A stretch of 64,000 bases of DNA from Candidatus Jorgensenbacteria bacterium (GTDB lineage: Bacteria; Patescibacteriota; Minisyncoccia; UBA6257; GWB1-50-10), in the NCBI GenBank assembly GCA_043807585.1, contig JAZDFV010000002.1:25581-89580 (forward strand). Reading direction: 5' to 3'. This document shows, one piece after another, positions 54,860 to 55,878 of the stretch. The notes beneath the pieces are model-generated. The model had not been told where the DNA came from and did not search any database. It saw only the letters and a list, made by a program, of their open reading frames with translations. Numbering within the stretch: the stretch's first letter is position 1; each line of letters begins with the position of its first letter. The position numbers and the translations under genes are program-made.

Positions 54860-54861
54860 AC

Positions 54862-55040
54862 CCGCCCTTGGCGGGTCGCCCGTTATAGAACCTTATACGC
54901 CAAGAGAAAACCACGGGCGTAAGCCCGTGGAGTTTCATTTATCTGCTTCCAAGAAAACTATATCACTTTCCACGATCGTTGAAAGTGATATAGTTTTCTT
55001 TATTGAACAGCCGCCGAGAGGCGGCTGTTCAATAAAGGCT
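54862..55040 (+). repeat. train of four consecutive hairpins, including a 20-bp perfect inverted repeat (aagaaaactatatcactttc / gaaagtgatatagttttctt)
   Basis: The four hairpins are acccgcc/ggcgggt, ccacgggc/gcccgtgg, the 20-bp inverted repeat, and gaacagccgcc/ggcggctgttc. Confidence 0.7.
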
Positions 55041-55060
55041 TTTGGGGTATAATTAAAAAG

Positions 55061-55546
55061 ATGTGGAGATTCATAAAGAAATGGTGGGTTTTACAACACC
55101 TTCGTAAAGAGATAGCTTTTCATACTGGACAACAACCTATAGAAAAATTGTCTAGCGGTGGCAAGATTTTACCAACACAAGATTTTTTTATTAAGGGTAC
55201 AGATGCATATCCAGGATTGGCCAAGAAATCAGTAAAGAGATTTTCTTGGATATTATGGTGGCGCAAAAAGGAAAATATGGAAAAACTAAAGAAAAGAATT
55301 CACGAATATAACGAAATATTCGAAGTCTGTGTGAAAGAGAGTTATATCGAAATGCAACAAATGGATATTGGGCTTATAATGCCTTCAACCGCTACGCCTC
55401 TCGCTGACAGCATACATGGATGGTGGGGACTTCTACAAAATGTTTTGAAAAAATACAACCTCGCATGGACAGTTATAGTCATACCAATTTTGTTAGGAGC
55501 TTTCGGTTCTCCTTATCTGAAAGCTGTTCTTACTAAACTATGGTAA
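55061..55546 (+). CDS. AT-rich hypothetical protein (161 aa) inserted between rpsJ and rplC
   Basis: It is a Trp/Lys-rich ORF whose AT richness contrasts with the flanking operon. The C-terminal hydrophobic segment is predicted. Confidence 0.5.
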   Translation: MWRFIKKWWVLQHLRKEIAFHTGQQPIEKLSSGGKILPTQDFFIKGTDAYPGLAKKSVKRFSWILWWRKKENMEKLKKRIHEYNEIFEVCVKESYIEMQQMDIGLIMPSTATPLADSIHGWWGLLQNVLKKYNLAWTVIVIPILLGAFGSPYLKAVLTKLW

Positions 55547-55591
55547 TAAACTCATCAAACCCCCCATGGCGTCAAGGGATTAATTATCTAC

Positions 55592-55640
55592 TTCTAACGG
55601 GGTTGACCCCACACATAACCCGGTTATGTGTGGGGTTGAC
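55592..55640. repeat. CCGTTAG-family partial element copy C with palindrome ccacacataaccggttatgtgtgg
   Basis: ctaacggggttgacccc is shared with copy A at 10241. Confidence 0.6.
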
Positions 55641-55750
55641 TCAAAAACGAGGATAATATAGGATAAACCTCGGGTTAAGGCACATACTTACGTATGAAAC
55701 AACAGGGCCAACCCTGCTGTTTTTAGTGCCTGAATACTTTATTCCCTTGG

Positions 55751-55878
55751 CATGAATCCCGTTAGAAACAACAAGATATCAATTATGATATTCAATCATT
55801 GTTCAACAAAAAAACACGACAAAAAGGTCATGTCGCCTTTCCACGGAAGCGCGGACGCTTCCTGTTTCTAACGGGATG
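55751..55878. repeat. CCGTTAG-TIR element copy D whose right TIR contains the rplC start codon
   Basis: catgaatcccgttagaaaca ... tgtttctaacgggATGaaa. Confidence 0.8.

Follow-up and report, generated by a model that had tools for sequence, protein, structure and literature searches.

Does a foreign gene lodged between rpsJ and rplC mean that an essential ribosomal operon has been broken open and rewired? The question is raised by a 64-kb stretch (here called the window) of a contig from a metagenome-assembled genome (MAG) of Candidatus Jorgensenbacteria, in which the genes for ribosomal proteins S10 (rpsJ) and L3 (rplC) are separated by 1,016 nt (Table 1). An earlier note on this DNA had described a gap of about 1 kb in a normally contiguous junction, filled by four hairpins, an AT-rich open reading frame (ORF) of 161 aa (here called ORF161) and inverted repeats, and that inventory is correct. 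The origin that we propose for it is a different one, as the interval is very probably a mosaic of later additions on an old boundary between two transcription units, and not a broken operon.

The first line of evidence comes from the same spacer in relatives, which are fetched loci labelled by L-numbers. By identity, the closest are L094, L102 and L103 (S10 96%, L3 85%), followed by L098 and L099 (S10 91%) and by L014 (S10 80%). ORF161 is absent between rpsJ and rplC in all six, and their spacers, with no gene called inside, measure about 514-550 nt in L094/L102/L103, 507 nt in L098, 180 nt in L099 and 411 nt in L014; the remaining operon junctions in L098, L099 and L014 are tight (3-22 nt). 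Among the 78 loci recovered with S10, the S10-L3 gap is commonly 100-420 nt in loci of the candidate phyla radiation (CPR) type and below 100 nt in most other phyla. Unrelated genes lie inside the gap at two CPR-type loci, namely an unknown 178-aa protein with a NUDIX hydrolase (L030, 2822-4075) and an unknown 219-aa protein (L064, 4310-5738), contents that fit a tolerant inter-operon site. Given the long spacers of the relatives and the foreign genes at these two loci, the junction is therefore not normally contiguous in this lineage, contrary to what had been assumed, and by its occupants it appears to be a repeated landing site in the CPR radiation. When the spacers are aligned, four blocks are held in common: the hairpin farthest from rpsJ (hairpin 4), a promoter, a unit of ~57 nt and the rplC initiation region.

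The promoter, found by a promoter scan and directed at rplC, is of the sigma-70 type and is kept as TTGAC(T/G)-17 nt-TAGGAT in L099, L098, L094 and L102, with an invariant 17-nt spacing and varying spacer letters. It is followed by the ~57-nt unit, for which alignments and folds across the relatives give a 5' part of the form CUCGGGUU(A/U)AGGCA, identical stems, and a hairpin loop that varies in length and sequence. The block that covers both (55636-55724) is 88.9% identical to L102 and 91.4% identical to L098, compared with 87.6% and 83.8% for tuf, 84.6% and 82.0% for rpsJ, and 77.9% and 77.3% for rplC-rplD; since the block is more conserved than the flanking genes, promoter and unit must be under strong constraint. 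A covariance model of the unit, searched against the window and 32 loci, finds it once per genome, in S10-L3 spacer position and orientation only, and no paralogs were found outside the orthologous position. An Rfam cmscan of 52800-57300 at E<=10 returned no ribosomal-protein leader, and only sub-threshold miRNA-like chance matches on palindromes. In four species, the succession of promoter, leader with intrinsic terminator and downstream ribosomal genes has the generic layout of a ribosomal-protein attenuator, a likeness of anatomy only.

The link to rplC is clearest in L099, where the ATG aligned to window 55752-55754 is the rplC start, the terminator ends about 30 nt before it, and no other conserved promoter was found in the spacer. 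In the window as well as in L099, AGGCAC of the 5' part is able to pair with GUGCCU just past the terminator, which suggests a structure in the read-through transcript. The spacer between tuf and rpsJ was examined in the same way, and no conservation among relatives was found there. Because promoter and unit are conserved in relatives, because the L099 terminator lies so close to the ATG and because no other conserved promoter was found, rplC most likely stands first in a separate transcription unit whose leader is the ~57-nt unit, and rpsJ belongs with tuf.

A 10-codon mini-ORF, MKQQGQPCCF (55694-55726), overlaps the leader terminator in four close species. Close relatives differ in it by a single synonymous substitution (CAA to CAG in L094), though one that also falls within the hairpin loop. 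We retain a leader peptide as a mere possibility, since L014 has no ATG there.

The main alternative is that the ~57-nt unit is an independent small RNA gene, and that rplC is expressed by read-through or from another promoter. Promoter, seed-like 5' end, hairpin and terminator are laid out as is typical of a trans-acting small RNA, five U follow a strong terminator, conservation is high in the single-stranded 5' part of 14 nt, and about 250 nt separate terminator and rplC in L094, L098 and L014. The arrangement in L099 speaks against this, as do the constant position and orientation of the unit and the AGGCAC/GUGCCU pairing, which would belong to a read-through transcript. We regard a separate small RNA gene as possible, if unlikely, and the unit accordingly stands as a candidate rplC leader or attenuator, or a candidate small RNA.

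The hairpin train after rpsJ is of mixed age. The region 54857-55045 folds at -92.7 kcal/mol, compared with -45.5 +/- 4.2 for shuffles (z = -11.3). For hairpins 1-3 (54860-55000), no counterpart was found in the relatives' spacers and no other copy in the window by self-BLAST. The core of hairpin 4, which is unique within the window, occurs among 103 fetched loci only in the S10-L3 spacers of L094, L095, L099, L102 and L103. The earlier note had counted all four hairpins into the insertion; hairpin 4 was rejected as a piece of it, since relatives without ORF161 carry the orthologous hairpin. By this distribution, hairpin 4 appears ancestral, and it is a probable terminator of the tuf-rpsJ transcript.

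ORF161 itself is a different matter. Its product matches NCBI protein V1696_01090 at 100% identity and contains 10 Trp and 24 Lys+Arg. Homologs fall into eight clusters at 40-72% identity, and a profile search gathers 88 cluster representatives, mostly of 140-200 aa. Pairwise dN/dS within the family is 0.07-0.26 (synonymous sites are near saturation), and an AlphaFold (AF2) model built from a 62-sequence alignment is confident, with a predicted local distance difference test score (pLDDT) of 93.3 and a predicted template modeling score (pTM) of 0.81. On account of the homolog clusters, the profile-search family, the low dN/dS and the confident model, ORF161 is evidently a real gene.

It is also evidently foreign to its position and horizontally acquired. 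The GC content of ORF161 is 0.364 (0.321 at third codon positions), that of the window 0.54 and that of the neighboring genes about 0.60; across the family, GC stays at 0.30-0.40 at host loci of 31% to 54% GC alike. Homologs occupy eight unrelated neighborhoods, among them sites after rplL and a GIY-YIG gene, beside an IS1595 transposase (once with secY, once with a NinG-like gene), beside a SocA_Panacea gene, downstream of a tRNA gene with type IV secretion system (T4SS) pilin and NYN genes nearby, a few kb past fusA (fusA..Dus), and beside sugar-metabolism genes. DNA similarity between loci is limited to the ORF and about 20 nt upstream, beginning about 55040. It is the varied contexts, the narrow span of similarity and the independence of GC from the host that mark the gene as not native, and the claim that it is an insertion stands: ORF161 is missing from the spacers of the relatives and differs from its host in GC, so that a lineage-specific operon member, conserved in place with matching GC, is not what is seen. 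Among the parts specific to the window, the ORF161 cassette with its 3' flank takes up about 55038-55601 and lies between hairpin 4 and the promoter. Judging by these sites, the family moves between unrelated loci, often adjoining mobile or defense-type genes. Its sole named member comes from a Parcubacteria-group bacterium, and the family has so far been seen in Parcubacteria-type sequences. At L013 (602-1565), in the interval from rplL to a DNA-alkylation-repair gene, the homolog comes directly after a GIY-YIG endonuclease gene, free-standing and T5orf172-like, a hint that a homing-type nuclease may co-mobilize it there.

The copies probably each bring their own promoter. A TA(T/G)AAT box lies 7-8 nt before the ATG in 6 of 9 loci, four of these with a TGn extension, and the spacing points to an mRNA that would be leaderless or nearly so. 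Possession of a conserved -10 box sets ORF161 apart from an integron gene cassette, and no attC-like conserved palindrome was found in the 3' flanks of the homologs. Scanning viral contigs with the family alignment found no relatives.

For the protein, the most consistent feature is a hydrophobic C-terminal helix, present in 56 of the 62 family members, from which ORF161 is predicted to be a tail-anchored membrane protein. Pfam, PHROGs and PADLOC searches with ORF161 and the 62 family members gave nothing significant, the isolated matches all having E>7e-4; we put down to chance the matches that single members gave to SLATT_5, COX4, JetB and LmuC, at E 7e-4 to 6e-3. A sequence-profile search of the PDB with the family gave E>=0.06 and coiled-coil noise, and in Foldseek comparisons of the model the best E values were 1.7 for PDB and 0.55 for BFVD. 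Winged-helix proteins (MecI/BlaI, MarR, RTP, ORC2, ScpA) recur among the top non-significant Foldseek matches, a weak hint of a winged-helix likeness. An accessory or selfish membrane role, for instance in exclusion or addiction, is a guess that we offer with low confidence.

The remaining additions belong to, or lie among, small repeats. A CCCGTTAGA-family terminus motif has 14 matches in the window, compared with 4.3 expected, a number reached in 0 of 100 shuffles. The matches include six inverted pairs of 66-121 nt with unrelated interiors and a GC-rich hairpin by the right terminus, flanked by duplications of about 5 bp (TTGAC, GTACAC, ATGAA). Element D, the copy at the rplC start, has terminal inverted repeats with 20-nt arms of 90% complementarity in a repeat search, ATGAA on both sides and a related empty site in L099, features like those of miniature inverted-repeat transposable elements (MITEs). 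Two copies sit exactly on start codons, those of rplC and rplW, with the ATG duplicated.

The best-documented insertion is that of the sister copy at the rplD/rplW junction (57112-57232). The empty site in L102 reads GATTATGAAACTC (wider: TAATTTTTCATGATTATGAAACTC); the filled site in the window reads GATCATGAA (wider: TAATTTTTCATGATCATGAA) and a T, then the element from CCCGTTAGAG to CTCTAACGGG, then ATGAAACTC, with ATGAA on both sides. Filled and empty sites thus differ by an element with a 5-bp duplication that takes in the start codon, as expected of a MITE, and L102 has an 87%-identical copy at another junction, rplW/rplB. Because of the empty site and the copy at a different junction in L102, the MITE-like family is evidently mobile, and the suggestion that the operon tolerates invasion is supported here, at rplD/rplW. 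A search of the large ORFs in the window's AT-rich regions turned up no transposase. The literature searched yielded no paper connecting CPR bacteria to MITEs, or intergenic repeats to Jorgensenbacteria.

With element D in place, the old rplC ATG (55752) lies 124 nt before the one now in use. When translated, it opens an upstream ORF (uORF) of 39 codons that runs through element D to a TAA stop at 55869-55871, 4 nt before the rplC ATG. The termini of the element can form a stem of 12-15 bp ending right at the rplC AUG, and no Shine-Dalgarno sequence precedes rplC.

Shine-Dalgarno-like sequences are missing before rpsJ, rplD, rplB and ORF161 as well, and before most genes in this DNA (the sites include 54515-54526, 55861-55875, 56455-56469 and 57838-57852), and Shine-Dalgarno pairing appears to play little part in starting translation in this genome.

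Between ORF161 and element D, the repeats do not add up to another element. The right terminus TTCTAACGGG is found at 55592 and again at 55866, and in complement at 55758. The stretch 10238-10285, which a complete element precedes, matches 55593-55640 with 85% identity. At the site of the 27-bp palindrome, L099 has GGGGTTGAC uninterrupted and L098 a different palindrome at TTGAC. Of the two inverted-repeat elements, C and D, that the earlier note had named, D has held up. 'Element C' (55592-55767), bounded by the orphan terminus and by the left end of D, was rejected as a transposable element, since its interior is the ancestral promoter and leader. An 11-nt pairing, CAAGGGATTAA/TTATTCCCTTG, was put down to chance, since it and the other repeat are not nested. 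A metagenome scan with CTCGGGTTWAGGCACATAC returned two true loci of the L094 species, and two chance matches in coding regions (L100, L101) were rejected.

A second intergenic family, of ~170-250 nt and the form GGCTTTGTCTAAAATT...GGGTGCTCAAATTT...GGCATG (57601-57852, 59025-59262, 60680-60847 and 61293-61527), fills several ribosomal-operon junctions and ends at the next start codon. In L094, L098 and L014, an element of this type lies between the leader terminator and rplC.

Could ORF161 and hairpins 2-4 instead have been carried by a single composite, transposon-like element (54879-55601), with CCCGTTA(TA)GAA and TTCTAACGGG as its imperfect inverted termini, of the repeat family of element D? 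A near-match to the left terminus at 54879-54890, the orphan right terminus at 55592-55601 and the mobility of the family would agree with this. However, hairpin 4 lies inside the span and is orthologous in relatives without ORF161, target-site duplication is absent (GGGTCG vs GTTGAC), the left terminus carries a 2-nt insertion, and ORF161 homologs at other loci are not flanked by these termini. We consider such a composite quite improbable.

The reading closest to the earlier note, that a tight rpsJ-rplC junction was split by a mobile insertion of ~1 kb that rewired the operon and supplied the rplC promoter, is very unlikely. ORF161 is indeed foreign, gaps outside the CPR are mostly short (<100 nt), and other ribosomal junctions in the window, such as rplD/rplW, are demonstrably invaded. 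The synteny nevertheless largely refutes it: relatives without ORF161 already have spacers of 180-550 nt that contain hairpin 4, the promoter and the leader, what is specific to the window amounts to no more than about 800 of the 1,016 nt, and the conserved module is single-copy. As the promoter is present in relatives without ORF161, it predates the insertions and did not come with them, and the idea of rewiring falls. A chimeric join in the MAG is hardly credible as the source of the AT-rich segment, since, for all that this is a MAG contig with an abrupt drop in GC (about 0.60 to 0.36), hairpin 4 and the rplC promoter, two syntenic features specific to the host that lie about 600 nt from each other, enclose the foreign gene exactly, the contig is collinear with relatives on both sides, and a similar AT-richness marks each spacer between genes in this genome (about 40% GC each in the window, compared with about 57-68% in coding regions).

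We therefore return to the mosaic on an old boundary. Its ancestral framework, found in relatives too, consists of the rpsJ-distal hairpin 4, the sigma-70-type promoter, the terminated leader of ~57 nt, and the rplC initiation region ~30 nt on. Transcripts of tuf-rpsJ would end within the hairpin train, ORF161 would be transcribed from its own promoter, and any read-through from upstream would meet the leader terminator; rplC-rplD-rplW-rplB and the genes beyond would be driven by the conserved promoter and tuned at that terminator. To this site, already non-coding and insulated, came four additions in the lineage of the window, namely a self-contained foreign gene (ORF161 with its own TATAAT box), three extra hairpins after rpsJ, a 27-bp palindrome with GTTGAC duplicated at the -35 box, and a 119-bp MITE-like element on the rplC start codon, with ATGAA duplicated and an ATG kept at the right end of the element. 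More speculatively, translation of the uORF could melt the terminal-repeat stem and permit re-initiation at rplC.

Several observations weigh against this reconstruction. The -10 hexamer TAGGAT agrees with the consensus at just four of six positions, and promoter use, termination and read-through are all read from sequence. The ~57-nt unit may be a separate small RNA gene rather than a leader; it is present in four near-identical sequences and L014 only, with no covariation to support its structure, and the L014 copy is without its hairpin 1. ORF161 shows no recognizable scars of transposition or recombination, its function is a guess with no match to a family, fold or defense system, and a larger composite element could be delimited by the imperfect CCCGTTA(TA)GAA at 54879 and the orphan TTCTAACGGG at 55592. 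The uORF coupling is not general, as the sister element at 57112 has a uORF of 7 codons and the L102 copy no upstream ATG.

A bolder proposal, which we consider doubtful when taken as a whole, joins three conjectures. First, the 'S10 operon' of Jorgensenbacteria, and perhaps of the wider CPR, would begin at rplC under an undescribed leader or attenuator of ~57 nt that senses L4 or L3, or translation itself, and that contains the mini-ORF overlapping the terminator. Second, the MITE family would integrate at start codons and survive because the duplicated ATG opens a uORF that unmasks the true start. Third, ORF161 would represent a new mobile family at translation-operon boundaries, membrane-tethered, nucleic-acid-binding and possibly winged-helix-like.

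Table 1. Positions of genes, hairpins, regulatory sites and repeats in and around the rpsJ-rplC interval of the window.
Feature	Position	Strand	Description
rpsL (S12)	49546-49956		
rpsG (S7)	50174-50641		
fusA (EF-G)	50779-52914		
tuf (EF-Tu)	53155-54354		
rpsJ (ribosomal protein S10)	54527-54859	+	Pfam PF00338, E 9.9e-32; closes the run rpsL-rpsG-fusA-tuf-rpsJ
Hairpin 1	54860-54876	+	7-bp GC-rich stem (minimum free energy fold); window-specific, without counterpart in the relatives' spacers
Hairpin 2	54911-54930	+	8-bp stem with 7 GC pairs; terminator-like on both strands (terminator scan and fold); absent in relatives
Hairpin 3	54951-55000	+	AT-rich palindrome; 25-nt arms, 96% complementarity, outer 20 bp perfect (repeat search and fold)
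Hairpin 4	54998-55037	+	18-bp perfect stem, core AACAGCCGCC-N4-GGCGGCTGTT (repeat search)
TATAAT -10 box of ORF161	55048-55053	+	7 nt before the ATG; read from the sequence
ORF161	55061-55546	+	161 aa; basic, Trp-rich, predicted C-terminal membrane anchor; unannotated family
ORF161 3' flank	55547-55601	+	Its last part, TTCTAACGGG (55592-55601), is an orphan right terminus from the CCCGTTAGA family of repeats (motif search)
27-bp palindrome with flanks	55602-55640 (palindrome 55608-55634)	+	CCCACACATAACC-C-GGTTATGTGTGGG; GTTGAC direct repeats; at the -35 box of the rplC promoter
Putative sigma-70-type promoter	55636-55664	+	TTGACT-17 nt-TAGGAT (promoter scan); directed at rplC
~57-nt unit	55667-55724	+	Single-stranded 5' part CUCGGGUUAAGGCA, hairpin CAUAC-loop-GUAUG, intrinsic terminator AACAGGGCCAACCCUGCUG and U5
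Ancestral rplC initiation region	55725-55756	+	AGTGCCT..TTCCCTTGG(C/G)AATG aligned to L099; includes the displaced old ATG (55752-55754)
Element D	55757-55875	+	119 bp; termini CCCGTTAGAAAC / GTTTCTAACGGG; ATGAA on both sides; at the rplC start
MITE-like family copies	10178-10246, 25447-25512, 50001-50103, 55757-55875, 57112-57232, 59875-59977		Termini CCCGTTAGAKAC/GTMTCTAACGGG
rplC (short L3, 144 aa)	55876-56310	+	Pfam PF00297
rplD	about 56470-57093		
rplW	57233-57604		
rplB	57853-58674		

Some features of the surrounding genes merit separate mention. The L3 encoded by rplC is without about 60 residues from the middle of E. coli L3, and the short form is common to more than 100 L3 proteins of 131-157 aa from Jorgensen-, Brenner-, Lipton- and Paceibacteria. 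At the 3' end of tuf, the final 33 nt (10 residues and the stop) are repeated 80 nt downstream with 82% identity (54322-54434), and the 47 nt between the two copies hold two hairpins (TCCGAC..GTCGGA). All six differences are synonymous third-position changes, and the second copy resembles the 3' end of another tuf allele; the duplication is not present in L102, L098, L099 or L014. These features suggest an insertion or recombination event that carried its own replacement gene end. On the minus strand, a 3.9-kb AT-rich block (5004-8862, 40% GC) with a metallophosphoesterase-domain ORF of 381 aa and an ORF of 851 aa, the latter with no significant family match found, may be another foreign island.

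How does the module before rplC compare with known ribosomal-protein leaders? The L4-regulated S10 leader RNA of the E. coli type, which the earlier note had expected before rpsJ, has a narrow distribution and is confined to Gammaproteobacteria (PMC3616713), so that its absence there is no anomaly. The two have in common a promoter-proximal leader, with a small hairpin and then an intrinsic terminator, before ribosomal genes that include rplD (L4) (PMC3616713). They differ in that the ~57-nt unit precedes rplC, not rpsJ, and has two hairpins, compared with about 170 nt and five hairpins in E. coli. Their sequences show no similarity, Rfam has no match for the unit, and the likeness is one of anatomy.

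Correia/NEMIS of Neisseria, ERIC, RUP and BOX are bacterial MITE-like intergenic repeats that are co-transcribed with genes. The family in the window resembles them in being short (66-121 bp) and non-coding, with terminal inverted repeats, target-site duplication and several copies per genome, and in lying between operon genes, where long mRNA hairpins are possible, at positions that differ among related genomes. It is distinguished by its termini (CCCGTTAGAKAC), by a duplication of about 5 bp, and by the conservation of termini and a GC-rich subterminal hairpin only, as well as by the two copies placed exactly on start codons and by a cognate transposase that was not found in the window.

The homing-endonuclease genes seg and mob of phages are free-standing selfish genes between conserved genes. 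Like them, and like the orphan accessory genes of the CPR mobilome, ORF161 is a single small foreign gene, apparently with its own promoter, at variable sites between housekeeping genes, and its L013 homolog adjoins a GIY-YIG endonuclease gene. Unlike seg and mob genes, ORF161 is without a nuclease or recombinase motif, is predicted to be tail-anchored, and had no relatives in the viral contigs scanned.

There is nothing unusual in the arrival of a foreign orphan gene and of small repeats at a boundary between operons. What this locus corrects is an expectation drawn from model bacteria: in this CPR lineage, the rpsJ-rplC junction would not be an intra-operon one, so a gene found there says little about the tolerance of essential operons for insertions. 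The comparison of filled and empty sites indicates instead that miniature repeats invade true intra-operon junctions, and even start codons, in a type of genome that is usually called streamlined. ORF161 adds a small, confidently modeled, unannotated family, predicted to be membrane-anchored, that appears to move among Parcubacteria-type genomes. The most novel parts are the start-codon-duplicating repeats and the candidate rplC leader, and the promoter and leader module before rplC could turn out to be the first autoregulatory RNA for ribosomal proteins known from CPR bacteria.

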